NCBI RefSeq assembly: GCF_025526975.1
Contig: NW_026515692.1
Span: 248,001 to 312,000, forward strand
From: Fimicolochytrium jonesii
Taxonomy: Eukaryota
Direction of reading: 5' to 3'
Length of the DNA stretch: 64,000 bases
Part shown: positions 15,044-49,719 of the stretch, in pieces
How the letters are laid out: each line of letters begins with the position of its first letter
How positions within the stretch are numbered: position 1 is the first letter of the stretch
Translations under genes and position numbers: made by a program
The notes under the pieces: model-generated
The model's input: the letters and a program-made list of their open reading frames with translations, nothing else
Told to the model about the DNA's origin: nothing
The model's database searches: none

Positions 15044-17546
15044 CTAATCCAAATCCAAATCTCCTTCCCCTCCCCTATCTTCCCTTGCACCCCCTCCTTC
15101 CCGGGCAGTAGTAGGAGGCGGCTGCGCGACATACCGACCCGTCTGCGTCTGCGTCTGTGTCGTTGTATTCCCACCACTCCCTGTGCTATTCGTTGTTCGT
15201 TGTTGTGGCGACTGCTGCTGTGTTGTATTCGACGCGTTGTTGTTGGTGGTAGAAGTTGTTGTAGGTGTAGAAGCGTTATCGGCAGGGTTAACCAACGAGT
15301 ACCGACACACAGGACACGTTCCTAGAAATATCACAATCAGATACACACACACAAACGAAACAAAATATATGATTTCTCCCGTACCATTAACACCCAACCA
15401 ACTCCCCACACACCCCTCATGAAACACATGCTTGCAAGGTAACCGCACTGCCTCGTCGCCTACGTTGAAGTCGTCTTGGCAGATGGGGCAGTCGCGGGTA
15501 TATACCTTATCCGTATTCTCACTGTTCGCGTTATAGGAATTTGATGTGGATGTCGGATTGGCACCGAGATCTTTCTCCGTGATGGTTATCTTGGGTAGGG
15601 AGGCGATGGTGGATGGTGCGGCGGGGGGTGGGGCGTTGCGTTGTTGCGTTTGTTCCATTACTATCACCGGGAAAACCATATATCAGCGATATGCGAGGGC
15701 ATGACCAACCGATGATGTGACATTTTTTACGTACACTGAGAAACGATATCATCCAACCCGCGCTGTCCAAACACGTAATCGCCCGGGTTGCCGACCATGT
15801 TGAAGAGTTCTCGGAAGGGGTTCGGTAGTTGTTGTTGGCCTGCGGTTGTTCCGGTGCCGGGATTCATGGTGGGGCCGAGGAAGCCTTCTAGGAACCTTTT
15901 TGCGGGACGGGTGAGATCGAATTATGCGGGACAGCGCAAGAAGATAAGGGTGATACTTACGCAGCAAGATCCAAAACCGGCCGTCCACTTGGCGGCATCG
16001 CCGGGATGAACGGGAACCCCTGCGTCTGTCCCCCCACACCCGCACCCGCACCCTCACGTTCACTCTCCCTCCTTCTCCTCACCCTCTCCCCAAACGCCAC
16101 ATCAGGCCCTTCAGCAGCCGCAGCGTTGGCGCCGGGAGTTTCGCCGGGTGCTTCTGCTGCTGGGGCGTGGCCTGTTGTTGATGGTTGTGCTGTTGTTGTT
16201 GTAGACCGGGGGATGGATCCGGACCCGGGGAATGGTGGGTGGATCTCTTGAATATCATCGTGGGCATATCGCTCGCCTTGGGCGTTGACGCCCGCGCCTT
16301 CGCCTACCATCTGCTGGAGCCAGGTCTGTAGGAGTCGCGCGACGTCGTTAGGGGGCGTGTTGGGGGTTGCGGGGCGCGGGCCTGGGTTCGCGGTCGTAGG
16401 ATTCGAAGTCGTGGTGCCAGTCATAGTCACAGAGGGCGCAAATGGGAATATCGGTCCCGTTGGCGCCGGCTGCCCTGCTGCTGTATTCGTTGTGGTATTC
16501 GTCGTTGTATTCCTCGCTGTGCTGGTACTCCGAGTAGTAGTCGTAGATCTAGATGTCGTAGTAGTAGTGGTAGCAGTAAACGGCTGAAACGCCCGCCGCC
16601 CATCGAGCGCGCCGGTCCGGAATGTTTCTTCAATGGTCATGCCGGGGTAGATAAAGGACATCATGGATAGGTCGGGATTGTAAGGTGCGCCTGGCTGGAG
16701 GCCGGTGGTGTAGTGGAATACGTGTGGCTGTCCGGCGTGTTCGTGTGAATGGTCGTGCTCGTGTGTGTGCTCGTGTTCGTCGGCGAAGCCACGAGGGTCG
16801 TTGTCTTCGTCTATCTGAGGGGGGAGGGAAGATTGCATGTCAATGCAGTAGTCAATCAACTGACAATGGAGGAAGGAGATTCTGCGTACCTCCTCAACGA
16901 ACTCCCCATGACAAATAGGACACGTCGGTGTCCCTGAATCCATCATCGGTCTAACCTCAATCTGACACAGGTGCTAAGGATTGAAGCAGGAATGGATGAG
17001 TGATGCGAAGGTTGGTCGGATGGACTGGGCTGGATGATACCCTGGTCGCTCCGCACGCGACAAGGATGTTGAGCTGCGTGGTCTCAGCCCTGTTCGTTCG
17101 CAAAACATCCAACCCTCGCCAAAGGCTTTCGCTCCGGTGGCCCAACCTCAAGCGTTCTTGGGCATTCATGTTTTGCTCGCACCGTTCCATCTTTTCACCA
17201 TCACATCACCCTCCCAAACTCACCCCTCCCCCTCAAAAATACTCACACACCAAAACGCGCCTTCCCTCCCTTCCCCATCATCCTCCTCCCACCCCTCATC
17301 CCCATCCCCATCTCCCTCCGGTTCAGATTCAGGCCGAGAGCCATCAGGTCGTGTATTAATCGGTGGTCCTGTCGTGGGAGCTGGTGATTGGGCTCGTGGC
17401 GGTGAGTAAGCGGGGAGGTTATCGTCTGTTGGTGTTTGTGGCGGGGCGGGTGTGAAAGTGGAGGAGGAGGAGGAAGAGGCGACGGCGGCGCGGGGCGGAC
17501 GGGGGGAGTTGTTGTTTGGGGAGGGGTGTTTTGGTGGGGATGACAT
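15044..17546 (-). CDS. RING-H2 E3 ubiquitin ligase, RNF115/RNF126-like, with N-terminal zinc ribbon; multi-exon
   Basis: Spliced FWC|HLC...CPICHGEFVEE zinc ribbon and C-terminal CPICQDDF...LPCKHVFHEGCVGSWL..NG|TCPVCR. First intron is 16974-17246. Confidence 0.9.
17036..17157 (-). other. Conserved structured intronic element, copy 1 (RING gene intron 1)
   Basis: Sense strand reads GAACGCTTGAGG ... CCACG ... GTCGCGTGCGGAGCGAC CAGGGTATC. The motifs are shared with copies at 26733-26913 and 41019-41299. Confidence 0.6.
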
Positions 17547-20141
17547 AGTGGTTGCTGGTGGGTTGTGACGCAGATTGGAGGTGAAGATGAGTGTTAATCT
17601 GGCGGGGGGATGAGGACGTTTTTCCCACGCCGTCTTTCTCCAGGGATGATGTGGAAGCGATTGCGCTCGTCGCACTCATCGATGACTTCTGTAGTTAGGG
17701 TTAGCACATATTAATCCCTCTCTGCTCACGCGCAGTCACGTGAGCGTCTTATTCCCTCTCCTTCTTTTTCTCATCGGGCAATTACGGAACTCATGCAGCT
17801 GAGGCTCACTGAGACACCCTCACTGAGACACGCTCACGTTCGCTTCACGCTCCAAGAAATCACGCTCCAACTCATCCCCGCAGGGCAAAGAAAAAATGTC
17901 ACATTGGCATAGGAGAAAGCGCCCTGGACGGGGCGGAATACCCTGTGACCTTCCCCACTCATCAACCACGCTGTCATGCATCTGCAGGACAGAAAGGGGA
18001 GGGGAAGGGGAAGGAGAGGAGGGCGCATGGTGGGTTTCCAACAAAAAAACGTCGATCGGCGGTCATCCACCACCTCGCTTGGCAGTTTTGCATAATTATA
18101 CGATCCCGCCGGTGCGGCGGTGTTGTGGGAAATGAATTTCAAAGCTCACGAGACATGCCGGTATCCTTGCATGTCCGCGCAGCTCCCCTCTCCCGCCCAT
18201 ACCCTCCTACCCCGCCCAAAAGGTGTCAGTTTTTTCAAGAGGGTGTGATGGACGCCCCAGTCGTCACGAGAGCTGATTTTTGACGACACGTCCAGAACCC
18301 ATCGTCGACGGCGGTCAGGTTGAGCTTTCAAGGGCGAAAGGAGGACCAATGCGACGAACCCCGCGGGCTCTAACCGTTTTGGAATTTTTGCTTTGGCCAT
18401 GAAGACTACGTAGACGTAATAAACCCTCATCAGGTCAGGCAGGGCTCGGCATTCTTTGCGACTTCCACGATGGCTTTGCACATGCTCATCAGGCAGGCCG
18501 CCATGGAAAGGGAAGCTGCGTGCCCCTCCAGGCGAGTCCAGATCCATGTCCGAATGAAGGAGAGTCGACTGCACACCACCCGACCTCACCCGAGAAGTAT
18601 AAGGGGAAAGTAACGCGTGGCAGTCATCATTTGTGGTCACGCCTCGTGCGTCGTGACATCCTCGCCCGCTCTTCTCACAAAATGGCTTGCGCATTTCTGC
18701 GTTGTCGTCGTAATGTAATTTGCTATAGTAGTAGTAGATAGTAGATCCATGCTTGCTTTCGGTAATAATGAATTGGTCTGAAGGGGGCGATCGAGTTCTC
18801 TTGAGAGAGGCTGTCCGTCTGCCTTCGGACCAGATCGGAAGCGAGGGCAAGGTCAGGCACGCGCTCGCGTGAGTGCTGCAATCTCACGTCTTTCGGGCGG
18901 TGTGGGCCTCTCCTTCCTGGAAACTGCCTGACTGCGCGTACGGACGGCTCATATTATACGCCATTTACGCATGTGGTTGGAGGGCAAGGGCATGTCATTC
19001 CCCCTCCTTTTCCCTGTTGGTCTCCGTCGTATCGTAAAGGGGTGTGTGTGAAGGGTTGTGGGAAAAAAAAGTATATAAGCCCAAGACCACGTTCCTCGCG
19101 CCCGTTTCCGGATTCTTTTCTCTCCTTTCTCGCCTTTTGCCTTGAGGTTTCTGGAGAGTGCGGACGTTAGTTGGGTATTCGTTCAGGACATCCCACAGAC
19201 CTCTCCAAACCCCTTCTCCCCAAGGGTTCCCAAGGGTCTCCACAACAACACGCGAGCGAATATCGCCACGACAACAAAACTGAGGCGTGCAAAAACAACT
19301 GGCCCCGCATATCCATCAACCCATACATACCACGGTCGTCGTCGTCGTTCGCTTGTCGTTCTTCTCAACCGAAGTTACCGAAGCGAAGTGCGTTGCGCAT
19401 AACACGCCCTATTTCAGCCCGTCGCTGCCCCCCCCACCCACACACACGTTTGTCACGCGTTTCCTGTCCAGGCGTTGTGCTCCGAATCGTCCCGGCGTGG
19501 TGTTTTACACCACACAGCGCATATTCCCACGACGACGACGACGACGAGCGAACGGGCGCACACACAGACTTACTGCCCTTTGACGAGAGAGTGAGCGACC
19601 GAAGGGCAGCGAGGAAGACCCACCTGGGCTGAACAGATAATACATCGACGGAACCCGGCGACACACACGGCCGTTTACAGAAACAAACAACATCGAAAAC
19701 CACAGCACCATTTCCAACAAACAGTCGTTCGAGAATATCGCAGCGGGCGAACGAAAACACAGTTATAAAAAAACCACAGCGCGTCAAGCGTCAACGGCAC
19801 CGGTCCTTAAATGCACCCCCACACGCATACACCGACGCCATACGCTTTACGCTTCCCCACGCGGAGTTTGATACAGAGATAGGAAGAGAGACGCGACGAG
19901 AGAGACGGGAAGACAAAAAAAACGATAGCGAGCCATTGGAGGGTGTAAGAAACTGCAGGAGGGATGGACGACTTGACTGTTCAGCGGTATCGGGTATGTA
20001 AAAACATGTGAGAAAAGGGGGAGATGAAGCGGAAGTGATAGAGGAGAGAGTGGTTTGGAGAAGCCAAGCCGGGGTTCCGAGAGGATGAAAGGGGGAAGTA
20101 TCGGAACGCATAGGGGATGCGGGGATTCCGGTCAGGAATAG

Positions 20142-23100
20142 ATGTACCCAATATGTGCGCGGCGGCGGCCATTCCAGCAGGCACAGGATTCCGGGGACGC
20201 GTTACATCAGCAGCAAGGCGATTTTCACGTTTCTCACCGCTGCATCCGTCTCATAGAATATCACAAACCCTAACCCTAACCGCCCGCCTCTCTCCCTCTC
20301 CCCTCCCAACAGACACTGAAACAAACCCTCCTCCCCCGCCTCAAAGTCCCCGAACTCAAAACGGTCCTGCAACACCTCTCCCTCCCAAAAACGGGCCTCA
20401 AAGCGGAACTCGTCGATCGGATCGAAAGACTGCTGGACGACGTCGTACTGGGTGTCGGGGGTGTGAATGCGGGCGTGGGTGTCGGGCCAGGAAGACGGAG
20501 AGAGGTCGTTGAGGGTGTGTGGAAGGCTGTGAGGGGGGTTATGGGTGAGGCGGGGATTGTATCACAGCCACAGGTGCCGAAAATGGTGTCGCCGCGGATC
20601 AAGATCAATATCGGACGGCCGCCGCCGGCTGGGACGACGATGGGGGAGCTTATTGCGAGTGGGCGGGGGCCTGTGAAGAACGCCGGTGCCAGTGGTGCGG
20701 GAGGGGGAAACGGGACAGCTGGAGGGGGAAATGGGAATTTGGGAGCAGGCCCCGGCGGCCTAGGCGGGATTGGGCACTGGAAACTGTCACCCTTCTACGA
20801 GATCGTCGCCCCGTTGTGTCAAGCCAGGGTTTGTGATTGTACGTCCCAGATCTCCCCTCTATCTTATTCCATCTCCCGTCTCGCTTACCCTACTGTGATG
20901 CCTTTTTTTTTGGAAGGCCGGAACACGTCGACGACACATTCATTGACCTTCGACATCTCCCACCGCGCCTTCCCGAAGTTGATTGTGGATCCGTCGACGC
21001 AGTCTGGACAGGCGGGAGACGAGCATAGGGTTATGGTGTTTATCGCGCCTGAGAATTCGGGAGGTGCGGGAGGGACGGGCGTCGAATGGCCCGTACCCTG
21101 TGAGTTGTGGGTTATGGGTTCACGGGTCGAGGTTAAGGTAAGCTGAATCACTAATGTTCTTGTAAATTTTATCTTGAGCTGACGATGAACGGCATTTTTT
21201 GAAGAGGTTTACGGGTTTGAAAGGCAAACCATGGACAGGCCAACCCGCCGACATCACACCCCTCTGTAACCTCTCCCAGGGTCCCGGGAGGAGGAAGTTG
21301 GAGTTGAGGGTGGGGGTTTTGCCCAAGACGCAGAAAGTGCCTCCCATGCTCGATCAGGCAGGCGTGATACCGCAGCAGCAACAGAGAGACCACCCGACCC
21401 GATATATATTGACGGTGTTGTTGGTTAAACGTGTACCTGTGGGCAGGGTCGTGGAGGGTGTGAAGGAGAGGAGGATGAGTAGGGATGGCATGCGTAAGTC
21501 CAAAATCATAAGTTCTTTCTTTCATCTCACGTTCGCTCACACCGTTTTTCCACAGGCCCAGCACACGCCCAACACCCGCACGGTCAACAGAACACCGATG
21601 CAGAAGACGACGACATAATAACCCTAACAACAACCCACCGCATCTCCCTCCACGACCCGACCTCGATGCTACGGATCACGACGGCGGCCCGGTCGACGTT
21701 GTGCGAGCATGCGCAGTGTTTTGATCTGGAGACTTTCTTGGGGTTGATGGAGAGTTTGCCGACTTGGTGTTGTGTTGTTTGCAGGTGGGTTGTGAGGATT
21801 CAGGGGCATATTTCGGTGCGGGAGGGATCTCCGAGGTGGATCCGAACGACGTGAATGGCCGACATGTTGACATAACCCCCCTCTCTCTTTTATTTTATGA
21901 TTGCAGTAAATACCTTGGATCGGCGGAAACGTTACATGTAGACGAACACTTTCAATCCATCCTCGACAACACCTCACAGGATGTCGAAAGCGTCGATGTG
22001 CGGCTTGATGGATCTTGGGTCGTCGCTGGGGCCGGTGACCACCCATCTCCCGACGATCAACATCAGCATCACTCAACGACCCCTTCCGGCCGTGGAGAGT
22101 CCCGATCGGTGTCGGCTGTTGTTTCATTGGATTCCGATGACGAGGCGACACCGGCGACGGGAGTGGGAAGGAAGCGCACTGCTGATGAGGATGAGAGGAC
22201 GCCGCCGAGGCCAGCCAAACGAGCCAAACCGAGCACGCCGTCGAGGATCGAGGTGGTTGATCTCACTTTGAGTGATGACGAGGGTGACGTCAATTCCAAT
22301 CGGGCGAGTGGGAGTAGACCAGGGCAGGCAGCGAAACCGGAACTGATGAAAGGGGTGATGCACCCACATCAACAACAACAACTTGCGAATGCCGCGGCGA
22401 GGTATGGACATCCTGTGCATCCGCGGAGGGCCTCGCTCTCCTCCCAACAACAACAGCAACAACACCCGCATCATATCCTCAAATTCCGGCCACCGCCTCT
22501 GAGTACAATTGCTGCTGCCGGGAGGACGTTACCGCCCCCACAAGGATATGGGATGCCACAGCAGCAGCAGCGGCACACACCGCAGCAGTTGTATGTACAT
22601 CCCCACCAACATCTGCAAGGCCTGCACGCAACAGCATATCTACCCCCACAGGCGACCCAAGCAATGCAGGTTCGAGCTATAGCCGTGCCGAGGCGCGGAT
22701 CATCGCCGGGGTTGACGGGGGCTGTGCATCCACGGGGGGAACGGCAGAGGATTCAACAGCAGCAATTGCAGCAACTGCAATATCAGCAGCAGCGGCCAAC
22801 GGCCCCGACGGCAGGATATCCGTTGCCAGGAGGAGAGTCACTTGCGGCCGCGTTGGTGCCGCATCACCCGCAGCAGAGGCAGCATATACCCCCGCAGCAG
22901 CAGCAGCAGCAGCAGTACCCTCGTATGCCGACGCAATATCACCCGCAACAATCGCAGCCACAACAACAAACACAAACACAGGACGGAAATCAAAGACCGT
23001 TGCGTATTCAGATCATGCACCGCCCGCAACCAGGAGGAGGACAGCAGCCCAGCAGCGGCAGTGCAAGCGGCGGCGCGGGACACATTACCAGCACCAGCAA

Positions 23101-24460
23101 CACTCACAGCAATAGCAGTAACCCCCCCTCATCACGCCGCTCATCCCAACTACATACATCCTCGGCCTCGGCGCTGTCGAGTGCCGGGAGTAGTGTGTAC
23201 TCACCCTATGCGACGGCAGCGCAGGGGAGGAGGAGTTCAGGGGCGGTTGGGGGGTTGCCTCCCGCTCAGAGTCGTAGTTCGGCTACGACGACTCAACCAA
23301 ATTCGAACAGCCGTCCCCCCGCTGCCACGCCGGGAATGAGCAACAACCGCAGACGGTCTTCGGCGGGGAGTAACAATAGCAGCGTGAACACGAATACAGC
23401 GCAAGAGCAGCGAACGACACCACCGCAGGGTTTATCCACCGAGAGCTTGCAGACCCTCCACGCAATGATGCGCGTCAGCGGCGTCGTGAGCGACGAGCCT
23501 GAGGAAAAGATGGGGGTTGTGGAGCGACGGGCGAGGGAACGGGAGCGGTTGTTGAGGGATGAAGAGGGGCATGCGAATGCGTCTCGCGATACCCGGCCGA
23601 CGAGTGATGTGCACGAGTCCGATGGAAGACCTACCTCGTTGTCCATGTCACGATCTCCGCCCGTGGCTGCGTTACCGCCCGCGTCTATGCCGGTTGCGAC
23701 GACTGCGAGTCCGCAGTTTGCGAAACCGCCATATATACCCTATCGACCGACCGTGATCACAGCGGCTATGCCACCACCCGTACGACCAACCTCGGTAACA
23801 GTCTCCTCCCTCCTTGCGCCCTCACCGTCACCCCCGCCGCCGGTCCTGACATCTCCGACATCGTCTTCGTTTGCGTATCTCTTTGCGAAACCTGGGGCGG
23901 AGGAACGAAGGGATGGTAACGGTGGTGATACCCCCGGCAATGGGAACAGGATGAGGACTGAACAGCAACAGCGGTATACGGATCGGAGCACTGCGTCGTT
24001 TGGGAGGGTGGACGAGGGGGGTGGACATCGGAATGCGAACGGGAGTCATCCGACACAACAACGGTACCGCGACCCCACAACCGCCTCCTTCCCAACGGCA
24101 GCCGGTGCGAACACGAATCCCGCACCGAACCACGAACACCACCGCTACCGCCCCGCCTCCATCCCCCCCTCACGCGCAGACCCAACCCAACCCGGCTACC
24201 GCGACCCCCCAACAGCTCCCTTACCCATCCGTCTCACCAGCCTATCCGCGGACAACACGAACCCCATCTCACCCCTGTCACTCACCAGCCCGGCAGTGAG
24301 GAGACGCGTTACGCCGACGGAGCAGGCGGGTGTTGCTGTTGTTGCTACGTCTGCTGAAAACTCGCGGGTGGATGATGCAGACGAGAGAGAGGAGGGCGAG
24401 GAGAATGCCAAGCGACGATGGGTACTTTTGGAGGAGGAGAGCGGGGAGGGGGATGTATAA
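20142..24460 (+). CDS. SIZ1: SIZ/PIAS-family SUMO E3 ligase; multi-exon, start codon uncertain
   Basis: SAP domain LKVPELKTVLQHLSLPKTGLKAELVDRI (~20340-20440), PINIT-like PADIT, SP-RING CEHAQCFDLETFL..WCCVVC, SUMO-interacting motif IEVVDLTLSDDE, long Gln-rich tail. Confidence 0.88.
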
Positions 24461-25125
24461 GTATTTGATGTGTTAATGGTGTGGGTAGGGCAAGTGGGGA
24501 AAGATTGGAACGTTGGATGGGTATACCCTGGTAGTTTTCACTACCCCGTTTGGCGGATATGTATATTATGGGAGCGGATGTACAGTACATTTGCGTATGT
24601 GGTGCGTATGGAATGTGGATATGTACAGTATGCATTTTTTTGCGGAATAAATCTGGGTGGGAGGCAATTTGAATTCTTTTGGGTGTGACGGCACTTTCAA
24701 CGATCTGCGTTTTCTGGCGAGCAAACTCCACCCTCAGGTTCGGTGTCGAACTCCTCATATGTCGGGATGAAACCGAGCCTGGCGGGTTACGGTGCTCAAG
24801 CTGAAAAAGGTTGTCGCCTTCGTGCTCGCCGGGGGCTTTCGTCGTTCTCCTGCTTCCAAGACCAGGGGTATTGGCGCAGTGTCTAAATCTATTGCTGCAA
24901 AATACTGTACATGAACGCATACGCCTTTTCAGTCTACAGTGTCTGCCATATCATCCCAGAATCTGGATTAGATACCGCACTAGTATGTACGGCCTGGAGC
25001 GTTGTGATACCCGAAAGCCAGATAGGGGCCCTGGGTTCTTCTCATACTTGCCATCCAAGTATCTCATAATTGCGGGTGAGTCCGCCCGCCATCACCGGCG
25101 TCCGCTCTCTTCACTCCCACCCTGC

Positions 25126-27148
25126 TCACTCGCCTTTCTTCCCACTCGCACTCGCATTCCCACTCTCACTGCCACTCCCACCCCCACTCGCTCCACTGTC
25201 TTCAGTCCCACTCCCACTCTCACTCTCGCCACCACCACTCCCACTCCCCATCTCACCCTCCATCTCCCTCTCAATCCTCTCCAAAACCCCCTCCAAAACC
25301 CCTTCCCTCTCCCTCCCCCTATCCCTCCTAAACTCCAACGCCGGAAACTCCCTCCTCCCATTCCCCCCAAGTTTCTCCATAACCAGTTTCCGCACCGCGG
25401 GCTGGTACATCCTCAACGTCTCCTCAACCTCCTTCGGCGGCACATCCGAGTCGGCGAGGATGTGGTAGTAAACAAACACGGACCTTTTCGATGCCGACGG
25501 CGTGATGCGTGCGAGTGACCAGTGCGTGTGGAGCGGGAGGAGCGCGGAGGTGTGCAGGTCGGTGAGAGCCGTGTGGATCTTTGTCGCCAGTCTTCCCTGC
25601 CGTTTGCCCAGCTGTGGGGCGTCGTCGGCTGGTGAAGGGGAGAGGTTGCGGTTATCGGGCGCGCGGGGTTTGAGCGCGGGGGTTTTGTGGATGGGTGGGA
25701 TGAGACGATCGAGGGCGGCTTGTTTTTGGGCGCGGCGCGCGTCGGCTTCGTCTTGCCGGAAGGCGGATTCGAATTTGCCGGGGATGTGGTGGGTTTGGCG
25801 GACGCCGGTGAGGGATTTGGGGAGGTCTTCTGGTTCGAGTGATGGGTCGTATGGGGTGGGTGGGGAGGGTGGGGAGGAGGGACGGCGACGGGTTGGGGAG
25901 CGGTTAGGCCCGCCTTTTGCGTTGGCTAGGGCTGTGGCGAACTGTTGGAATGTTGGGGGGTCGGATTGACGTGCGGTGGTGGATGTGGAGAAGGCGCGGG
26001 CGCCGAGGGGATTCGTCAATTGTGAGGAAATGCGGCCTAGGAATTTCTTGTAGAGGCGGCGGTGGGCTGCTCCCATGGGTACGAAATGCCCACCGTCGTG
26101 GACTAGTGCCTGCGGGCCCTTACGCAGGGGCGCGCTGTTGTCGGCCTCGTCGGCCGCGGGGGCTGGCTCAGAGTCAGCAGTAGTTCCAAACAACTGCATT
26201 AATCTCTCGCTCTTGAAGGGCGGCACCCACGTATCCGCCCTCCCAAACACATGCAAGGACGGCACACCACCCAACATCGCCGCGCGTTCCTTCAGAAACC
26301 CCGCCCAGCTCGCGTCCCTCGGCAAAAACCCCGATACATGGATCGAGAACAATGGCTTCGGCTCCAATTGCGGCAACGCGATCGCCGCCATCGTCGCGCC
26401 TTGCGAAAAGCCGAGGATTCCATGAAACCTCGTCGCGCTGAGATCGGCTGAAGGTGAGGACCACATGGAACTGATAGCGGCTAAAGAGTCGTCGATGCCT
26501 TCGTAAATTTCGGCGGTTTCTTTGAAGCGGAACCATGCTTTGGGGCCTTCTGATTCGGTTTGGGAGAAGCCGGGTGGGAGGTGTTCTGGGGCGACATCGT
26601 GGGGTGCTGACATGAATACTGAAATTCAAAGGGAAGTAAGTCAACCATCAATCTGTCAAGCATCACTAGTCAACCGTCAACAAATCAACCCGTCAACCCA
26701 TCAACCCATCAACCCATCAACCATCAACAAACGATACCCTGCTCGCTTCGCTCGCAATGATGTTGTTCCGGTGGGCAGTAGCGTAGCTCGCTTCGCTCGC
26801 TAAAGATCTGACCCTTGCTGAGGGTCGCTAAGAGCCGTGGTTAGGGGAATTGCGCCCTTGGCGCAACAAAGTCGCTACGCTCGCGGTCCCTTCGCTCACG
26901 CCACAAGCACTTCGAGAATCATACACGGACTCACCTAGCTCTGCGGTGTCCTTTACATCTTTCCGCAAGACTGCTAGCCGCTTGCGAAAGACCTGGTTGA
27001 CAGAAATCGGTCAGGCCGTTTTGCGTTGTGAGAGTCTCCGAGTTCCCTTTCCTTTCCGTACCTCGGCATTCTGGGTATATCCGTGCAAGCAAAGAATCCG
27101 GAGAGGAGCTTTCGCGGCGACTACTGCAGTAGCGACGGCGGCTGTCAT
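25126..27148 (-). CDS. FSH1/OVCA2-family serine hydrolase fused in frame to a C-terminal RbfA-like domain
   Basis: LRILCLHGYTQNAE in exon 1, nucleophile GFSQG, Asp in GRADTWV, His in GGHFVP. The frame continues without a stop into KRQGRLATKIHTAL...SKRSVFVYY...FPALEFRRD. Introns at ~26994-27061 and 26619-26934. Confidence 0.85.
26640..26730 (+). repeat. Degenerate (CCATCAAC)n minisatellite inside the FSH intron
   Basis: Direct reading: tcaacccgtcaacccatcaacccatcaacccatcaaccatcaac. Confidence 0.8.
26733..26913 (-). other. Conserved structured intronic element, copy 2 (FSH gene intron 2)
   Basis: Sense strand reads GAAGTGCTTGTGGCG, GCGAGCGTAGCGA, TTGCGCC-AAG-GGCGCAA, CCACGG, GACCCT..AGGGTC, AGATCTTT, two GCGAGCGAAGCGAGC, CAGGGTATCGTT. 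Confidence 0.8.
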
Positions 27149-27687
27149 TCTTCTGAGACCCGGTTGCTTGGGGGGGAGCGGATTGTGGAGTGGGAGTAGA
27201 TGACGGGGCCGACCCGGTTAAGTCGGAAACAGCAGACAGACACTCGGACGGGCTCCCCACAGCTCCGACGCCAAATGATGTTGAAGAAGTCGCATCAGCG
27301 TTTGTTCAGAAGCGAATTTCCGCCCCCCCTTAGTGATGGTCTGAGTAATGATGGTCAACGCGCGTTAGGGTTAGGGCTATTGGATGCGGCCGTCTCGTCT
27401 CCGGTCACACAGGCGTTGACATTTGAACCTTCTGAAAACACTTCTGCCAATCAATTTGGTTGCACACATGGGGTGAAAACAGTCTTCTCCATCAAGGGGT
27501 AACATGTATGTAACATCATGCACAATCTTATATTATATTTGCAATGAGGAAGTACTTTTGGGGTCGAAGGAATCTAAAAGTTCTGGGTGGTGGTGCGCCA
27601 TGTGACATTATACGCCGAGGGGAGTTAACCGCATCCAATCCCGTCAGGGAGTGAAGGAGGCGGAGAAGGATTCGATAGGAAAGCCAT

Positions 27688-29652: not shown

Positions 29653-29982
29653 GTTGCTGAGCTTTGTTCTGAGAGGTAAAATAGAAAATAAGGCGCACCT
29701 TAAGTACGATGCCTTGAGAAAAATTGTGTGACGACGTTAACTGAGACGGCGGAGGGCGTCCCCCGCGGGTTTATATACCCCACATGGACATCCGTTGCGC
29801 CACCGCCTGTTGCTCTGTGCTGCTCGTACTGTACCTCCGTTGATCTGGTCCGTGGGAATTCGCTGGGCAAAAAGCTGTACACAGCCGAGATGGTTACAGG
29901 CGAAACCCTAATGCGCTTCTTTGTCACATGATCAGAAGTCGTGAATCACATGAGTCTAAATTAATGCTTCCTTCGTAACGGG

Positions 29983-30008
29983 CCTAACCCTAACCCTAAC
30001 CCTAACCC
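29983..30008 (+). repeat. Interstitial telomere-type repeat (CCCTAA)~4
   Basis: cctaaccctaaccctaaccctaaccct, ~330 bp upstream of the ArgRS start. Confidence 0.9.
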
Positions 30009-30097
30009 TTTGTACAACAGGTAGTGGTTACACGCCCGAGAACGCGTTCTCCAAATGTCTCCGTTCTCGTCGCTCGACGACTCTTCGCGCGTCAACC

Positions 30098-30574
30098 TTG
30101 CCGTGCGACCAAAGCAAGGTTCTTTTCGAATTGAAGCGTCGTCGCGGGACCCTGTGCGAACCAGAAACCGCTATTGAGCCCGTCTATCACGGGCGCGGCG
30201 GCGGCGGACGCGGACACGCAGGTGTTGTTGAAGCATCTGGGTGCGGCGGACATCTCGCCGATTCTGAACTACCTGCGGAAGACGGCGTGCGTGAAGAACG
30301 GGGCGACGTACTGTGCGGCGGATGAGCATGACGCCGCGCAGAGGGGATGGCGGTGGATGCTTGCACGCCGTGTGCGAAGGCCCAGTATGATGCTTCGGTG
30401 GATACCCCTTCGTTGCCGGCGTATGCGAAGCCGACGGTGGATGGAGAGGTGGCGAAGGTGAAGACGCTGTTGGATGCGTGCCCGGCTGATAAGCTTGCGA
30501 ACTCTACCACTGCCCCGAAGACGTCTGGGGCTATTGCGATTGCGGGTCGCAACACTGTGATGTTGACGATTTGA
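30098..30574 (+). pseudogene. Fragment of a Cys-rich secreted or GPI-anchored-like protein, frameshifted
   Basis: TACVKNGATYCAA, then DACTPCAKAQY...LLDACP...TAPKTSGAIAIA in a different frame. No intact N-terminus. Confidence 0.4.
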
Positions 30575-30680
30575 GAGTCTGGAAAGGGATCATTTTTGTT
30601 GTCGGATGGTAGTTCTGCAAATGTGACTCCAAGTCTGTTTACTCACATGTATCATACATAGACATAGAGATCTCGTAGGG

Positions 30681-30761
30681 AATTGAATAAGGTCCTTACC
30701 GCCTGGGCCAAATGCTGTTTGTACGTAATTGAATAAGGTCCTTACCACCTGGGCCAAATGC
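30681..30761 (+). repeat. 35-bp direct duplication
   Basis: AATTGAATAAGGTCCTTACCRCCTGGGCCAAATGC at 30681-30715 and 30727-30761. Confidence 0.9.
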
Positions 30762-30859
30762 CTCAATTTTATCTCATACGCCGCAACACATACGATATAT
30801 CTATTCACAGGTCCACTCAAGAGTACGCCGTAAAGATAAATTTCGACCATCCACAAATC

Positions 30860-32635
<1,776 letters not shown>

Positions 32636-33021
32636 GGCGACGACTTTTTGTTGGTTGCTGGTCAAAAGGAAGTTGAGTGGAGGACTAGCGCCGGCGACGT
32701 ATGCAGCTGATGAGCTTGTGGATATACAAGGCCCCTCCCTCGTTGGGAAGTGTTTGTCCTTTTATATACGTATGTATATGCTTTGGTGGTGGAGGATGCC
32801 AGTTGATGCCGGTTGGATGCGATTCACATCTCCGCCCGAGGAGCCCCGCGTCCATGACTCACCATGACTCACCTGTTATCTATGCCCACTGCCCTGCCCG
32901 CCCGTCTGTCCCGTGCCAGCCTTCTCGGTTTCGATCGTCGACGACAGGCGTGGCTGGACTTCGGACTGCGTGCAAACCGCAATCTCGCATCCCATATATA
33001 CAACAGCGACCAACCACCAGG

Positions 33022-34755
33022 ATGGCGTTTCGGCTCGGTCTACTCTCAGCCGCGCTGTCGATCCCCGTCCTCTACTCCGGCGGGCCAAAGTTTGTTGCCC
33101 CGGTGTACGGTCAATTCCTCTCGGAACAGCACCATTTCGAAGCGGCTTTGGGGTCCGTCGTGCTGGGTGCCGCTCTTGGATATGCTTTTACGTCCGTCAG
33201 AGCGACGGCTGAAAGTAAAGCACGACCGCATACTGTGATTTCCCTGCTTGTGTCGTTACTCCTAACAGCAGCGCCGGGGGTGATGCGAACACTGTTCTCG
33301 CATAGCAGAGAGTGGGGCCCAGAATGGGGACCTTTGTTGACCATGGCGCCGGTGTATGCGGCGATAGCCCTCTTGTCGGCCGTCGCAGTGCTTGCTACAC
33401 CAGCACTTAATCCCTTCATGGAAGCGACGGCAGTGTCCGCGGCCCTCATCAGCAGTCTGCGGAGAGCGGATGCAATCGTGGACAAGATTGGCGAGTTTAC
33501 AGGCGGCAGCAGCACGTGCGGATTTCTGAGATTTTTATCGTTCTTTTGGCTGTCTCAGACCGCTGTAGATGCGTTGATGGCAGGGATGAGCACGTCCCCG
33601 GCCGTTGTTGCGACCACCGACGCGAAGAATGACGGCAAGAAGCCTGGCAAAGCTGCCAAAGCTGCCAAAGCTCTTGCCAAGACGCCCCAGGCATCTGCAG
33701 CGAAAAATAGGCTATTTTCTATGGGGGCGTTGATCGTTCTGTCAACCGGAACAGTCTTCCTCGGTAGCCTGTTCCCGGAATCCCGTCAGTGCAGCGCTTC
33801 GGTGAAGTTGGACAACAAGTACGAGCTCCTCGCTCTGAACGAGTCCGTTACCGGATATCTGTACGTCATTCAAGACAACAGCAAACACGGCGGCATGCGA
33901 TTGATGCGATGCGACCATTCGCTAATTGGCGGTGGCTACCCAGAATACGACTTTGACTCGGTATTCGGAAGCTTCTACTTCCTAGACTTTGTGCAGTACA
34001 TCACGAGCGGCAGAGCCTCTGCGACAACGACGCGCAAAGCTTTGCAGATTGGTTTGGGCGTAGGGGCGTCCACAAAGACGCTCTTAGAACATGCCCGAGT
34101 GTCGTTAGATCTGGTGGAGCTGGATCCCTTGGTGGTTGAATACGCGAAAACGTACTTTGCACTCCCGGAACCTGCCACGACGCACATAGGGGATGGGAGA
34201 GCATTCATCGACGACGCACCGGACAACACCTACGACTTTGTCATTCACGACGTGTTCACCGGCGGTGTTGTCCCAGGCAAGCTCTTCACGGTGGAAGCCA
34301 TAAGAGGCGTCAAACGGGTCCTCAAACCCAAAGGTGTCCTCGCCCTCAATTTCGTCGGCACCTTGGAATCGATCGCCACAAAATCGGTCGTGAGCACCCT
34401 CAAGGACGTGTTCCCCTACCTCGAGATCTACACCGAAGACAAGCTAGAGAACCTTGCCGAGTCGCCGCTTTACAACATGGTGTTCTACGCGTCTACGCAC
34501 CCAATCACATTCACGATTCCGGAAACGGCGACGCTGCCACATACGTCGCATATGTACAGACATTTCGTGGATAGGTTCCCTGCTAGTCGGGCGACGGACT
34601 CGCCAGTGTTTGAGGAAATGGTGGGGAACCTGGATGAGAGGCTGATCATCACGGACAAACACAACCCCCTGGCGACGTTGCAAATCGAGAGTGCCGAAAA
34701 ACACTGGGGGGTCATGCGAAAGTTGTTTGATGATGAATTCTGGACGGGATTCTGA
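33022..34755 (+). CDS. Membrane-anchored spermidine-synthase-like SAM-dependent transferase; intronless
   Basis: Several N-terminal TM helices, then RCDHSLIGG, ALQIGLGVG, VELDPLVV, IGDGRAF, YDFVIHDVFTGG, LKPKGVLALN. Confidence 0.88.
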   Translation: MAFRLGLLSAALSIPVLYSGGPKFVAPVYGQFLSEQHHFEAALGSVVLGAALGYAFTSVRATAESKARPHTVISLLVSLLLTAAPGVMRTLFSHSREWGPEWGPLLTMAPVYAAIALLSAVAVLATPALNPFMEATAVSAALISSLRRADAIVDKIGEFTGGSSTCGFLRFLSFFWLSQTAVDALMAGMSTSPAVVATTDAKNDGKKPGKAAKAAKALAKTPQASAAKNRLFSMGALIVLSTGTVFLGSLFPESRQCSASVKLDNKYELLALNESVTGYLYVIQDNSKHGGMRLMRCDHSLIGGGYPEYDFDSVFGSFYFLDFVQYITSGRASATTTRKALQIGLGVGASTKTLLEHARVSLDLVELDPLVVEYAKTYFALPEPATTHIGDGRAFIDDAPDNTYDFVIHDVFTGGVVPGKLFTVEAIRGVKRVLKPKGVLALNFVGTLESIATKSVVSTLKDVFPYLEIYTEDKLENLAESPLYNMVFYASTHPITFTIPETATLPHTSHMYRHFVDRFPASRATDSPVFEEMVGNLDERLIITDKHNPLATLQIESAEKHWGVMRKLFDDEFWTGF

Positions 34756-35452
34756 TCCGCCCTTTCGGCATCACAATCATGGACGTAGATATGACCGCCG
34801 GGTGGCCCATGCTCTTTATGAGCTATTCTCTTTCAGTACACGGTCACAGCAAATCCCTCCGTCCCACCCATCGATATATCAACAGCTCTATAATCTGCGT
34901 CGCGGAAGCTTATAGTAGTCGCCATGCACATCTCCACACGCAATGGCACGCATCCGACAAATACCGTGCGGGGGGATACGATGAAGATCGAAGATGAGGA
35001 GCGGTCGGTCACTGAGAGGGAAGCAGGGTGGGGGACGGATGGTTGACGGGGGGCCGGCCGGCTTTTGCAGTGCCGTCGATTTTCATGTAACCAAGTGACT
35101 ACGTTTTCTTCACTTCTCAATACATCATACAGACGATCGGGTTGTATCTCCAGCCCTCTCGGAAGGGCCCATTGTTTCCATCAAGCTTCTTTTGACGCTA
35201 CATGGTGGCATTCGTGAAGATGGGCAGGACTTATGTGGTGGCCCCTGAGTTTCGTCGCGGAAGGCTGTTTATTCGCGCCCGGAAGGTCATTATTTCGCGC
35301 ATACAACAGTACAGTAGTAGTCCGGTCGTTGCGATCGTTGCATGATCAGGCCCCATTACCCTCCCCACCAGTCCCATTACAAGCAAGACTGCGTGTTCCA
35401 TCCTTTGAAAGAAAGACGGACTTCTAAGCACTGGCAAACCCACTCGTAAACC

Positions 35453-37276
35453 ATGTCCCGCACCGCCCGCACCCTCCCCTCGACGCTCCGCATCCACGCC
35501 CTCGCGCGTCACCTCACCCACCCCAACCTCGCCATCCCGCTCGCCATCCCCGCCGCCGCCATCCCCTCTTCAGCACATGCTTACAGTACGAACGCTGGCG
35601 CAGGAGCAGGCGTAGCTCCGACCTCATATGCGGCACTGATGTATAAGCAGTTTGGGAACCCCACTGATGTCTTGAGGTGTGTGGTTTTGTGTCGGGGACA
35701 GGTTGGAGGAGAGGCAAGGGAAGGGAGGATGCGGGATACCACCCGAGTCCCAACGCAGGAACAAGAGCTTGATCTGGAAATCCTTCATTTGTCCTTACTG
35801 TCCGTTCAACGGGTGAATCCTAGATTGGTACATGTGCCGCTCCCACCACTCACATCCTCAACCGTGCATGTCCGTTTCTTGGCGAGCCCTATCAATCCGG
35901 CGGACATCAATCAGATCCAAGGTGGGTTTGTCTGTCCAAGAGTATACTTGCTTGATGCGTGTGGATGAATTGGATGGAAGATCACCGCATTGGAACATAT
36001 TCCCATAACATCGCATCTCCCCACAGGCGCATACCCCATCAAACCAACCTTCAACGACACATTCGGCGCCATCGGCAGGAACGAAGGGGTTGCGGAAGTC
36101 ATCGCGGCCGGCAGCGATATTAAGGGTTTGAAGGTTGGCGATTGGGTCATTCCTGAGGACAGCGGATTTGGTACATTGCGTTTTGTGACCTGCGGATGTG
36201 GTGAGCCGTCTATTGAGGGTTGAGATATGATGTAAGAACATGGAGAATGCATGCACGTTTTATGGAGGTGGAGCTGATCAAGTTGCCAAAGGAGGGCGTG
36301 TCGAAGATTGCAGCTGCTACTATTAGCGTCAACCCGTGCACTGGTGAGAAAAAGACCATATGGGCTGTCAAAAGAGGACGACTTGCCACGCTGAAGACTG
36401 ACCCCTGTCTCAGCATACAGAATGCTGAAAGATTTTGTCGACCTGAAGCCGGGGGAATGTGGTTATCCAGAACGGCGCCAACTCGGGGGTTCGGTCAGGC
36501 TGTTATCCAGCTGGCGAAGGCGTGGGGGTTCAAAACCGTCAATGTCGTGCGTGATAGGTATGAGCAAAGATCTATTCGATGCAAGTTCACCACCCCATCC
36601 CTTCACAATCACTAGATCACTCACACTATCCCCTCACTAGACCCAACATCGATGACCTCCGCGCCCACCTCACCTCCCTGGGCGCCGACCTGGTCATCAC
36701 CGAACAAGATCTGCGGATGCCCGAGACGGCCGCAAAGATCAAAGCACTCGCTCCTCCCGCTTCCGATGGGGACTACAACAACGGAGGGGGGAGCGTCAAG
36801 CTGGCGTTCAATTGTGTGGGCGGGCACAGCGCTACTAACCTTGTGAGGCTTCTGGGGTGAGTTGTGATCGGAGAGTTGTTGATTGACAGTGAGAGATGGG
36901 TGTTTGATTCATGGTCCAAGTGTCCGACTTACCCACCGATCATGATTTTTGATGGAAGCCACGATGCCCACCTCGTAACCTATGGCGCCATGTCCCGCAC
37001 CCTACTCACCTTCCCAACCTCCCCCTTCATCTTCAAAAACCTCTCCTGTCACGGCTTCTGGATGGCCCGCTGGAACACGCGGCGCGACACCTCCCTGCGT
37101 GAGCGCATGCTGTGGATTTGTGTGGCATGATTGCCAAGGGCCAGTTGAGGGAGGTGCGGTGGGGGAAGGTGGGGTTTGCCAAAGGCGGGGGGAAGGAGGA
37201 GGAGAGTAGGTTGCTGGGGGCGGTGGGGAAGGCGGGTGAGGGATTTGCGGGGGAGAAGAAGGTTTTCGTCATGTAG
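35453..37276 (+). CDS. ETR1: Mitochondrial enoyl-ACP (trans-2-enoyl-CoA) reductase; apparent frameshifts in this sequence
   Basis: Presequence-like N-terminus, FLASPINPADINQIQG, AAATISVNPCT, IQNGANSG.GQAVIQ, LAFNCVGG, LVTYGAMS. Single-base indels near 36455, 36490 and 37112. Confidence 0.9.
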
Positions 37277-37780
37277 ATCTATCCTGTCGACCACGGCCAT
37301 CATCACTTTCAGTTTCTACCACCGCGTGTTCGCAAGCGATCGGCGTCACCACCCTCCCTTCCTCCTTGTTTCATTTGCTTATCATCATTCACTCCTAGGA
37401 AGGAAGGCCGTATCAAAGAATGCAGCTTTCATAAATAATCGAGAATCAAACCAGAATCGTCTATGTATACAATATGACATACAGTAGTCCGATGGTTGCG
37501 ATAGGTGCATATTCTAATCAGGGGGATCGTACGAGTTAATCGGATCTGCTCAGTAAGCTTCGAACTCTTACGCCGACATCTCTGCATCCCATCCCCACAT
37601 CTTCCATCTCCACATCTTCCACGCAATAGTGCGATGTATTCCCCTTCCGATGGCAAGATTCGCAAAACGAAACCGGGCATTTCTTGCACTTCGCCATCCG
37701 CCATGTCCCCTAATGCCCGAAATATGTATATAATAGAACCAAAATGCGTAGGAGAGCAGAGAGAGCATGCAATATATGAC

Positions 37781-38963
37781 TCAAAATGCCTCATCCCGAT
37801 CCTCCGTGTCCTTGATATTCAGAACCTCGACCTGCCCGCGTCCCTTAGTCTCGCCCGCCACGGCGTCGGTGATGGTACGAAAATGGCCTGGATCGATTAG
37901 ACAGACCTTTGGGGAGGGAATAAGAATCACATTGATTGGCGGTCTGTCTTGGAATACCTGTCGTTACGATTCGCAAAAGACACTTACCATCTCATAATCC
38001 TCCCCCCAATCCTCATCCTCCACCTTCACAAACCCGACCACCTTTTCCCTCACCCTCTTCCCCTCCTTCCCACCCACGACAACCCTAACCCGCATCTGCG
38101 CCCTAGCGATCGGGATGACCTTCTTCTCCTGCAGCTGTTTTATAACCTCCAACGCCTGCTGCTTTGCGCTCCGATTGGGATTGACGCTGAAATGCATCTC
38201 GGTCATGGCCTTCTCGATCATGGTCACCGTGTAAGGGCGGTTGGTGGACGGGTTGATGCATTTGTCGGCGACGGTGGTGGCGATGTCGCGGGAGAGGTTG
38301 GTGAGGGATTGCGTGCGCTCTTTTTCAGAGACTTGTTGTTCGCCTTTGCGGAGGATCTGCAAAAGAAATGTATGGGGGGTTTAGCGTGCGTGGCTGGGGG
38401 GCATTGATACCCCATGTACGACTGCTCAACATTACCTCCAGGATGATCTTATCCAAATCCCCCGTCTTGAACGCCGCCTGCAAATCCTCCTGCTTGGCCG
38501 TCTGCCCCTTAGACACGTTCACAAACACCGACCGGGTCTGCAGTACATTGTCCAGATCCGTTTCCCTAAAAAGTGCCCCCCTTTTGTCAGTATCCCCATC
38601 CTTTTCGCTCAAAGACTGAGTATGCGGAATCGGAATGAGGTCCGTCCCACCCATTTCGCATACACCCCCTCCCTACTCAGGTCCGACTAATGGCTTCATC
38701 CACCCCAACTGCGTCCCTCCACCCACCGCCCCTCCCGAAAACTCACACGTTATTCCGCCACTCAGTGACTTTATTCTTATAACACGCAATCTCGAACCGC
38801 TTCCCCCCCTTCTTCAGGCGGACGACGGATACATTCGTTAACCGGATCTAACATGGAAGACGAATGGGGTAAGTGGGACGGGGGGGAGTGGAAAAACCAG
38901 CACGGGAGTGGGGCTGAAGAAGAGGCGGACCTGGTTGCTGGGGGTGAAGATGTTTGATGACAT
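37781..38963 (-). CDS. SDO1: Ribosome maturation factor SBDS/Sdo1; multi-exon
   Basis: [51 protein letters not shown] [16 protein letters not shown]. Confidence 0.97.
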
Positions 38964-39492
38964 TGTTGATTATGTTCGGGGGTGGAATGGGAACGGGAAT
39001 TGAGGACGAGTTGAGGCCCCTGCCATGTAACAGTCAGGGGACAAAAAGCTGCGTCTCCTCCTGATTGAAGTCGATGACCGTTCCACACGCGCTGGCGCGC
39101 GCCTCGCGACACTGACTTAGTCTCGAGGAGAAACAGCTTTTTGTACGTGCGCTCAACGGTATCAAAAGTGTCAAAAAAGAGTTCTGGTGTATGTTACAGT
39201 TTGATTGTGGCTCAGATTGTGGCTAACAAGGATGATGATTCGCGTATTCGCCCAGTTTCACAAGATGGCCACTCGGCATAATGTGTATTGAGAAAACGTT
39301 CTGTGTGATTAGCGTTACGTCCGCTCATTAATGCAATGCTGGGGATAAATACTAAGCGAACTGGGGAGATGGAGATACAAGGAGGGGAGGGAATAGTATG
39401 TCCAGGATGGAAATGTCCGAATGCGAGGGGTAAATAAATACACGCCGGGCAAATAGCAGATTGGATGCTCTTCTCAAAAGAAGTGAGAGCAT

Positions 39493-41583
39493 TTAAAGAG
39501 TAGCAGCACTAAAGTCCTCATGCAACTGCCCCTTCACATCCCCCTCCCCCAACGTCGCAGGCCGTCTCACAACCTTCACCGGCCGCCCAAGCACCTTCCT
39601 AAGCCCCACCTCAGCCGCCGCCGCCAAAAACAACCCAACCACACTCGCCACAACCGCAACCACAAACGCCACCCAATCATACACCTCCCAAAAGTTGCGT
39701 CTGATCCCTGCGCCAAAATCACCGTCGGATACGATCGCGCCCTGGGTTGCGATGGAGAGCAGGGAGAACAGGCAGGCAAAGAGGACCTGGCGGCCGTGGA
39801 TGTACGGTTCCAGCCGGCGCACGAGACCCAGGAGCATCGGGAGCACCGCAGAGGCCGTGACCATGTTGGTGATGAGGTACAACGAATTGATGTTGTAACC
39901 CTGCAATGCGACGATAACGATGGGGACGTTGATGACGACGACCAGGAGGCGGGCGGCGGTGAGCGGGAAATGGTCGTAGCCGAATCTCTTGTGGGTGTGC
40001 GTCGTGGAGGCGAGGGCGACGACGGTGTCGGTGAGTGCGCCCTGGAAGGCGTCGACGGCGGATTCGTTCATTACCGCGGCGAGGATGACGACCAGGACGA
40101 TGATCCAGACGTCTGTGGATGTGTTGCCCTTTGTGAGGAGGTAGAAGAAGGCGAGGTTGGGGTCGCAGTTGGTGCAGGTGTTTATATCCTCCGGGGCGGC
40201 GTTGTAGTAGCCGAGCCATTCGGCGAGGACGCCGCCAAAGCCGAAGAAGAAGGCGACGAAGGTGGCGATGAGGGCGCCGACTGTTGCGCCGCGGCGAAGG
40301 GAGCGAGTGTCGACGGAGGCCCAGACGCGTTGCCAGACGGCGTCGGAAAAGAAGGTGGCCGCGGTCATGGAGACGCCCATGGTGACGATGGAGGTCCAGC
40401 CTGCCTCGTTGGGGGCGAGGTCGTCCGTCATGGGTGGGGAAGGGTTGGGCATGTGGACTGTTGCGGCCATGTAGATTGCGGTGATGACTACGAGGAGGAG
40501 AGTAAACATGCCTTGGTACTGGTCAGTGATGACGGAGACGTAGAGACCACCGACTGCGGTGTAAGTCATGGTCACTGCGCCGACGATGAGGATAGGGATC
40601 AGTTTGTTGACGCCGACGATGCTGGAGAAGAGAGAGCCGATGGCGGTGTATTCGGCCGTCAGGTCTGTGGAGGCGGAAAAGTCAACCGCCGAACATTCTT
40701 CACTGAACGAATTTGCGGCACTCACTGATGCCCATGTTCAACAAAACGATCAACGTCATGTAGATCTGGACGACAACTCCGTAACGGAAGCGCGCGAAAT
40801 CACCCCACGACATGATGTGTGGGTACTTGTTCCTGATGGCGTCTCCCACATATGCAATCACAATCAATGGCAAGCCCGTGAAAAAGGCGTACCACATCAT
40901 GCCGATGTAGCCATAGCCAGTAACCGCGTACGCTGGCAGTGAGAATACGACCCTGTTTTGCGACGAAAGAGTGGGATAGTAAGTTCGAGATCCCATCGGT
41001 CGACGTTGAAAGTTGAACGATACCCTGATGCGTGTGCTAAGCTCGCTTCGCTCACAAAGATCTGACGCTCGCGGGCGCTCGCTAAGTACCGTGGCCAGGG
41101 GTATTGCGCCTTTGGCGCACGGAACTCGCTCCGCTCGTGCACGCTGTTGCTCGCAAAGGCGTTTGCGATGGTGGCGCTCGCTCCCGCTCGCGCTCCCACG
41201 CAAACCAGAAGGCGTTCGATCTGGGAGACCGCCTCGTTGCACCACAACAACGATCGCTCGCTTCGCTCGCGGCTCGCATGGCTTGCGCCTCAAGCATTCC
41301 TGCGCCTAGGGCCCATTTGGGGCCCGCTGGCGCTCGCCTTCTCATCGCTATCGCTCGGACGCTCCGACTCCAACACCCACCAAGAACCCGTGGCCCCCGC
41401 AAAGAAACTCCAAGCGATTTGAAAAGTGGGAATGCTCCTTTTCGCCGTCAAAAAGAACTCTGTCGAGTCCTGTCTATCCTCCTGGAACCTCTGTTTCCTC
41501 CTCGCAATAACGAGGGCGAGTATCCCAAATAGGAGGACTGCTATTATGGAGAGGGGCAGGGCGAGCTCTTTGACTGTGGCCAT
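39493..41583 (-). CDS. Sodium:solute symporter family transporter (Dur3/Dur31-like urea or polyamine transporter)
   Basis: EFFLTAKRS..IAWSFFAGATGSW|VVFSLP, YTAVGGLYVSVITDQYQG, WQRVWAS, many TM helices. Intron 1 is 40953-41380. Confidence 0.88.
41019..41299 (-). other. Conserved structured intronic element, copy 3 (SSS transporter intron 1)
   Basis: Sense strand reads GAATGCTTGAGGCG, GCGAGCGAAGCGAGC, CGAGCGGAGCGAG, TGCGCC-AAA-GGCGCA, CCACGG, AGATCTTT, GAGCGAAGCGAGC, CAGGGTATCGTT. Colinear with the FSH copy. Confidence 0.8.
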
Positions 41584-42141: not shown

Positions 42142-42204
42142 CTAAGCAACCTCCTCCTCGTCTATACTACACCCTAGAGGACTACGTTGCTCGTCCAGAG
42201 CAGA
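42142..42204 (+). repeat. ~62-bp dispersed repeat, copy A
   Basis: ctaagcaacctcctcctcgtc...ctagaggactacgttgctcgtccagagcaga, near-identical to 49660-49719 (reverse) and 50050-50113. Confidence 0.9.
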
Positions 42205-49659: not shown

Positions 49660-49719
49660 TCTGCTCTGGACGAGGAGCGTAGTCCTCTAGAGTATATGGA
49701 CGAGGAGGAGGTTGCTTAG
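49660..49719 (-). repeat. ~62-bp dispersed repeat, copy B (inverted)
   Basis: tctgctctggacgaggagcgtagtcctctagagtatatggacgaggaggaggttgcttag is the reverse complement of copies A and C. Confidence 0.9.

Follow-up and report, generated by a model that had tools for sequence, protein, structure and literature searches.

Three long introns in a 64-kb window of the genome of the chytrid fungus Fimicolochytrium jonesii (the window being the whole stretch of DNA analyzed) are, judged by their sequences, the sites of diverged copies of one element family. The host genes are unrelated to each other and encode an RNF126-like RING E3 ligase (RING), an FSH1 serine hydrolase (FSH) and a sodium:solute symporter (SSS). 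The family is real and apparently undescribed. Because its hairpin motifs fold well as DNA and poorly as RNA, we favor, at a probability of roughly 0.45, a mobile DNA that is non-autonomous, passes through a single-stranded intermediate and persists in introns. The whole analysis rests on these three copies; papers are cited by PubMed Central (PMC) or bioRxiv number.

Related sequences in three long introns

The three host introns are as follows.

16974..17246, minus strand: intron 1 of the RNF126-like RING E3 ligase gene, 273 nt, phase 0, donor GTGAGT
26619..26934, minus strand: intron 2 of the FSH1 serine hydrolase gene, 316 nt, phase 1, donor GTGAGT
40953..41380, minus strand: intron 1 of the sodium:solute symporter gene, 428 nt, phase 2, donor GTGGGT

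Each of them is a real intron. Excising 16974-17246 joins a zinc ribbon at FWC/HLC (Pfam Zn_ribbon_19), excising 26619-26934 joins the FSH1 frame at TAEL/VFMS, and a database protein, P0001, reads GSW/VVF across 40953-41380. In a database search the large SSS exon matched an entry labelled F. jonesii at 100% and had 55-60% orthologues in six other named chytrids. Eleven neighboring introns, from these three genes and from a gene that we take from its sequence to be OTU-like, measure 60-78 nt; these comparison introns were delimited by eye, and 11 of 12 rows were measured, one being dropped when its anchor failed.

Every long intron contains five short boxes in the fixed order A, B, C, E, D, all sense to the host gene.

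Box A: GAA(G)YGCTTGWGG
Box B: CCAC(C)GG
Box C: YTTRGCGA
Box E: GSGTYRGATSTTT
Box D: CAGGGTATC

The copies, with their associated features, lie at these positions.

17036..17157, minus strand: RING copy, core from box A to box D, 122 nt; A 17157-17146, B (CCACCGG) 17140-17134, C 17123-17116, E 17115-17103, D 17044-17036; mini-hairpin motifs at 17132 and 17054
26733..26913, minus strand: FSH copy, core, 181 nt; A 26913-26901, B 26840-26835, C 26832-26825, E 26814-26802, D 26741-26733; mini-hairpin motifs at 26901, 26880, 26796 and 26751
41019..41299, minus strand: SSS copy, core, 281 nt; A 41299-41288, B 41094-41089, C 41086-41079, E 41068-41056, D 41027-41019; six mini-hairpin motifs inside the core, at 41288, 41266, 41193, 41187, 41134 and 41051
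41300..41360, minus strand, boundary inferred: SSS stretch lying 5' of box A, where further mini-hairpin motifs occur at 41354 and 41333
26785..26883 (FSH) and 41137-41040 (SSS), minus strand: aligned block of 99 nt, with 18 substitutions and 1 gap
26660..26728, limits approximate, minus strand: GTTGATGG-type microsatellite 3' of box D, read from the sequence, which lengthens the FSH intron

The original prediction, made from the letters of the window and its open reading frames, had described an ordered set of shared motifs in these introns. The order holds, but boxes C and E had been overlooked, and the second box of the RING copy, formerly read as CCACG near 17081, is replaced by the homologous CCACCGG at 17140-17134. 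Within the window the five-box chain matches these three introns alone, and neither box E nor box D occurs anywhere else. More specifically, CAGGGTATC, already singled out as a hallmark limited to three sites, is present three times, always on the minus strand, where 0.29 occurrences are expected and none of 100 shuffles reaches three.

The box definitions were drawn from the copies themselves, and the independent tests are sequence alignment and a profile built without the RING copy. FSH and SSS align over 99 nt at 80.8% identity (E 2e-20), in agreement with the roughly 100 nt proposed earlier, and RING aligns with FSH over 36 nt ending at box D (E 0.004). A profile of FSH and SSS only retrieves RING at E 1.2e-7, the next match being at E 0.33, which bears out the earlier proposal that a single family occupies the long introns of three unrelated genes. 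Identity of 81% over 99 nt, loops included, in genes that are unrelated points to copying. Searches of the window with blastn, a sequence model and nhmmer gave no further copy. A fourth exact box A lies at 57147-57158 (minus strand) in a short intron of the OTU-like gene; no other box follows it, and we take it as chance.

The similarity among the copies stops abruptly at box D. From the end of this box to the 3' splice site there remain 62 nt in RING, 114 nt in FSH and 66 nt in SSS, within the 60-115 nt given in the prediction. The 5' and 3' flanks cannot be aligned between copies (six of six comparisons fall within the shuffle range, the best at 16/200). Inside the element the spacer from box A to box B runs to about 5, 60 and 190 nt across the copies, so that short boxes are kept and the arms between them vary. 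The 5' boundary is uncertain because SSS carries element-type hairpins upstream of box A; this copy likely reaches beyond box A on its 5' side, in the direction of the donor.

Mini-hairpin motifs suggest a single-stranded DNA

The motif GCG-N(1-2)-AGC is found 14 times in sense and once in antisense in the 1,017 nt of the three introns, where the rest of the window predicts 0.51. With tandem GA on its flanks it is found 8 times in sense and never in antisense, and once in the remaining 126 kb (both strands). Homologous hairpins are not independent, and 14 versus 1 and 8 versus 0 are to be read as counts rather than as a test. At the three motif positions that are homologous between FSH and SSS, two differ in the loop only (GTA versus GGA; GTGA versus GCAA) and the third is identical: the GCG..AGC frames stay constant and the loop bases vary. 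Seven of the 14 motifs have a GNA triloop. Among triloops, only GNA forms the DNA mini-hairpin, the octamer d(GCGAAAGC) melts at 76.5 C as DNA and at 39 C as RNA, and such motifs are present at phage origins of single-stranded DNA (ssDNA) (PMC13037366). The motif marks one strand, because its complement cannot form the sheared G-A pair. Taken together, the constant frames, the polarity on one strand and the melting behavior as DNA favor the ssDNA mobile element that the original prediction had listed as one candidate.

Two of its structural details need correction. A GCGNAGC-capped hairpin had been placed before the last box, and SSS has none directly before box D. In FSH the stem closed by GAC..TC is perfect; in SSS, read in the same register, it is broken.

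Under the mobile-DNA reading, the element would be copied as ssDNA by a transposase encoded elsewhere, probably of HUH type, and the hairpin-bearing strand would be the moving strand. This strand may be joined to an exposed single strand at the target, presumably the coding strand of a transcribed gene; we propose that such exposure is what leaves copies in sense. Exonic copies would be purged, and copies landing in the 5' part of a 60-78 nt intron would be spliced out with the 3' splicing signals left intact. The 62 nt (RING) and 66 nt (SSS) that remain after box D amount to about one ordinary intron; these lengths fit insertion into the 5' part of short introns and also insertion before an old donor. 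The 10-nt flanks of boxes A and D contain no repeat, the true 5' end being uncertain, and no terminal inverted repeat (TIR) was found at boxes A and D. Box D ends in GTATC, which could belong to the element or to the target; IS200/IS605 elements have a fixed target of 4-5 nt beside one end.

All three copies are intronic and sense to their host gene. A second, unrelated repeat family of about 60 bp offers a comparison, its three copies being 87-95% identical and occurring in both orientations.

42142-42206, plus strand: second repeat family, apparently intergenic
49660-49719, minus strand: second repeat family, apparently intergenic
50057-50115, plus strand: second repeat family, apparently intergenic

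The contrast suggests that the placement of the intron family is not random, although three copies against three is not significant.

Several observations weigh against an ssDNA mobile element. Five of the seven tetraloop forms are also GNRA, which suits RNA, and the RING copy has two mini-hairpin motifs and no tandem-GA form. The targeting of a transcription-exposed strand is an idea from the literature on IS200/IS605 elements. A review of these elements gives only a lagging-strand bias (PMC10734217), and motifs of ssDNA and RNA are hard to separate by sequence (PMC5737381). Folded under DNA parameters, which score sheared GA pairs poorly, the cores are no better than shuffles (z = -0.31 to +0.27). 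The 64-kb window yielded no autonomous partner, empty site or near-identical young copy, and no transposase domain was found among 34 of its 79 listed open reading frames (ORFs). It also contains no intergenic or antisense copy, so that the mobile-DNA model needs an added strand or transcription bias. Finally, the host genes of all three copies are on the minus strand; 'sense' is thereby confounded with chromosomal strand, and a replication-strand bias would look alike.

Comparison with known systems

Elements of the IS200/IS605 type move as ssDNA, are bound at subterminal palindromes and make no target duplication (PMC10734217). With these elements and with REPs, their non-autonomous derivatives (PMC3733652), our element shares imperfect hairpins on one strand, short conserved boxes and fixed polarity, and no target-site duplication or TIR was seen at boxes A and D, its true 5' end being uncertain; the strand-specific imperfect hairpins in particular are present (14 versus 1, and 8 versus 0 for the tandem-GA form). 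It differs in its eukaryotic host, in the lack of a Y1/HUH gene among the 34 scanned ORFs of the window, in having many branched hairpins and five boxes rather than two subterminal palindromes, and in that all three copies lie in spliceosomal introns. By analogy, the element likely works like an IS200/IS605-type passenger, and it fits no family tested.

The original prediction had also offered a Helentron-like label. Helentrons, DINE-1 and HINE elements (PMC4067079) are likewise non-coding, have a presumed ssDNA intermediate and leave the target unmodified, and a microsatellite stands beside one of our copies. We reject this assignment: the 12-15 bp subterminal inverted repeats are absent (the best end-to-end inverted match is 4-7 nt), the 60 nt after box D contain no 3' palindrome in FSH and RING (0.0 and -0.5 kcal/mol) and only one of -6.4 kcal/mol in SSS, and the flanks of boxes A and D show no TT, with the 5' end uncertain.

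IStrons (bioRxiv 2023.11.20.567912) provide the precedent for an ssDNA transposon hidden by splicing, and faint P4- and P7-like pairings in our element recall them. They are bacterial and combine a self-splicing group I core with TnpA/TnpB, whereas our element is spliced at GT-AG and its group I boxes are unmatched.

The Spu-1 Fanzor ghosts of Spizellomyces punctatus, a fungus of the same order, are non-autonomous as well (PMC10432273). They measure about 550 nt and have 30-nt inverted repeats; our element has no TIR, and box D and the hallmark words are absent from the listed omega-RNAs and loci, so that a Spu-1 ghost is rejected. A giant-virus capsid gene has been reported in F. jonesii (PMC13533422).

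Small repeats made of hairpins offer a further comparison. They are non-coding, like our element, and some have GNA loops and GA internal loops. The double-hairpin elements of chytrid mitochondria and the GNA-loop repeats of giant viruses are two-hairpin units of 55-80 nt; our element, at 120-280 nt or more, nuclear and with five boxes, is set apart from both by description.

Could the element make introns?

An alternative that we regard as possible, though unlikely, is that the element makes or remakes the intron, either as an old introner or by inserting (as GTGRGT...CAGG) exactly before an old donor GTATC and supplying a new donor; in the donor-supplying version box E would pair with GTATCR as a target guide. 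The finding that three of three copies are intronic and sense is then explained without further assumption. All three donors read GTGRGT, while 2 of the 12 donors among the other introns called by eye are GTG donors, although selection in long introns could by itself favor strong GTGAGT donors. The sequence of box D is CAG-G-GTATC, and the distance from GTATC to the acceptor, 67 nt in RING, 71 nt in SSS and 119 nt in FSH with its microsatellite, is of ordinary intron size; yet not one of the other 12 introns has GTATC as its donor. Box E contains YRGAT, which pairs with ATCR in box D, by U-A in RING and by C-G in FSH and SSS. Productive two-step, stwintron-like splicing at box D is rejected: in each of the three genes, use of CAG-G-GT would leave one extra G behind and cause a frameshift.

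Introners (PMC9860276, PMC12130899) are, like our element, related sequences found in sense in the introns of unrelated genes and longer than ordinary introns, and a mechanism is lacking for about 72% of introner families (PMC12130899). The similarity among our copies is internal only, however, and the intron ends differ and cannot be aligned, so that there is no whole-intron similarity. The survey of 8,716 genomes gives zero families for F. jonesii in both of its two rows and, among the rows listed in the available text, zero for Geranomyces, Powellomyces and Spizellomyces; it targets recently transposed introns and could miss old families (PMC12130899).

A composite of this alternative with the ssDNA mobile element is improbable but has a clear form: an ssDNA transposon that homes to the coding strand of transcribed genes, possibly to GTATC donors by way of a base-pairing guide, brings its own donor and hides in introns or rebuilds them. 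Such a transposon would be a spliceosome-dependent eukaryotic counterpart of the bacterial IStrons.

Could the element be a structured RNA or a splicing switch?

A structured intron RNA is, in our view, an unlikely identity for the element. Such an RNA would act or spread once splicing is complete, and might be a ribozyme with a group I-like core. Kept boxes with variable arms are the layout of large RNAs, and the three copies are all intronic and sense. All copies have a 4-bp helix between boxes A and C, its changes being one-sided, and a helix-bulge-helix between boxes E and D (C_A_GAUCU...GUAUCG; U_G_GAUGU...GUAUCA), which may be set beside the group I P7 format of the ID motif, C_A_GACUG...CAGUCG (PMC8971849). 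This P7-like helix is formable in three of three copies with one U-A/C-G change, but two copies contain one mismatch, and a longer helix competes with it, in which box E pairs just upstream of box D (7 pairs in RING).

The remaining features of a group I core are missing. The chained match to the P, Q, R, S consensus boxes of Rfam is no better than in random segments of the window (81, 99 and 99 of 150 being as good), no helix of at least 4 bp is common to all copies in the P3 position, inspection found no P3, P1 or omega-G geometry, and splicing occurs at GT-AG; we regard a group I-like core as unlikely. Resemblances to the pistol ribozyme, retron msr, group II domain V, DINE-1 ends and bacterial CGTC repeats, weighed on general grounds, were set aside. 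A search of Rfam (small nucleolar RNA, riboswitch and ribozyme families) gave no match at the gathering threshold in the window and none at E<=10 over the cores, one sR11 match (E 1.7) falling on the microsatellite. With respect to group I, the silence of Rfam is weak evidence because its model underscored one T4 intron (nrdB, 35.7 against a threshold of 50 bits) and missed the other (td, unlisted).

The earlier idea of a selected RNA structure is possible but gains no support from folding: the RNA folds of the cores give no signal against shuffles (z = -0.27 to -0.35), and none of the 17 pairs of the RNAalifold consensus is changed on both sides, a comparison in which three copies, all intronic and sense, have little power. 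The seven GNA triloops are suited to DNA. Were the window typical, its three copies in 64 kb would scale up to many hundreds in the genome, a high number for genes of functional RNAs.

Folded as whole introns under RNA parameters, RING reaches z = -3.06, which comes from the pairing of its two ends, and the other two introns give z = -1.6 and -1.2. In the RING intron the G-rich 5' end (17180-17246) and the C-rich 3' end (16974-17035) make up a long stem that may place the two splice sites close to each other.

A cis-acting splicing switch, in which structure sets the use of the distal GTGRGT donor against the proximal donor in box D, is very improbable. Box D does hold a donor-like G/GTATC at ordinary intron distance from the acceptor. 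Some fungal thiamine pyrophosphate (TPP) riboswitches are found within genes for SSS-type transporters. In fungi, TPP riboswitches located in introns control alternative splicing (PMC5640933). There is, however, no match to TPP or any other riboswitch, the three host genes belong to no common pathway, the S. punctatus DNA that was sampled showed none of the hallmark words, and the DNA-type hairpins are left unexplained.

Occurrence elsewhere and significance

The six hallmark 11-mers (three words and their complements, with 6 occurrences in the window) are absent from the 936,384-character supplement of PMC10432273, presumed to hold S. punctatus ghost loci with flanks; its content was assigned from file order, and the blank loses weight through line breaks, redundancy and the way the loci were chosen. 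The result suggests, at the level of these words, that the family may be lineage-restricted. Pattern scans gave 2 matches in viral contigs, in one of five scans (the other four were blank), both without box A and taken as chance, 3 in metagenome contigs, all within a bacterial transporter ORF, and 2 in contigs of prokaryote genomes, without boxes A or D. The patterns were exact and fitted to the FSH/SSS type, and the collections are little fungal, so that these blanks say little on other chytrids. A blastn search of the SSS intron against plasmids returned 3 matches of 31-35 nt (E 0.4), and one of the FSH core against phages returned none. The literature searched, in which subscription papers are thinly covered, contains no description of the element, and the available text of a paper on fungal RNA motifs does not name Spizellomyces (PMC5640933).

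Most intron-associated mobile elements, to judge from the same 72% of introner families, have no known mechanism (PMC12130899). An intron-only family with an ssDNA signature would point to an unrecognized HUH-like transposase in early-diverging fungi and to a route of intron expansion or gain that is missed by screens for whole-intron similarity; F. jonesii is scored as introner-free in that survey.

Other features of the window

The FSH1 reading frame continues into a region with a weak RbfA-like match (25126-26625, minus strand; E 6e-4), which is possibly a fusion or an adjacent gene. Telomere-like (CCCTAA)n tracts are present at 20263, 29983 and 41704, the last just upstream of the start of the SSS gene. 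A 60-nt direct repeat with 75% identity (9600-9659 and 11325-11384) is probably an internal duplication in a coding gene.

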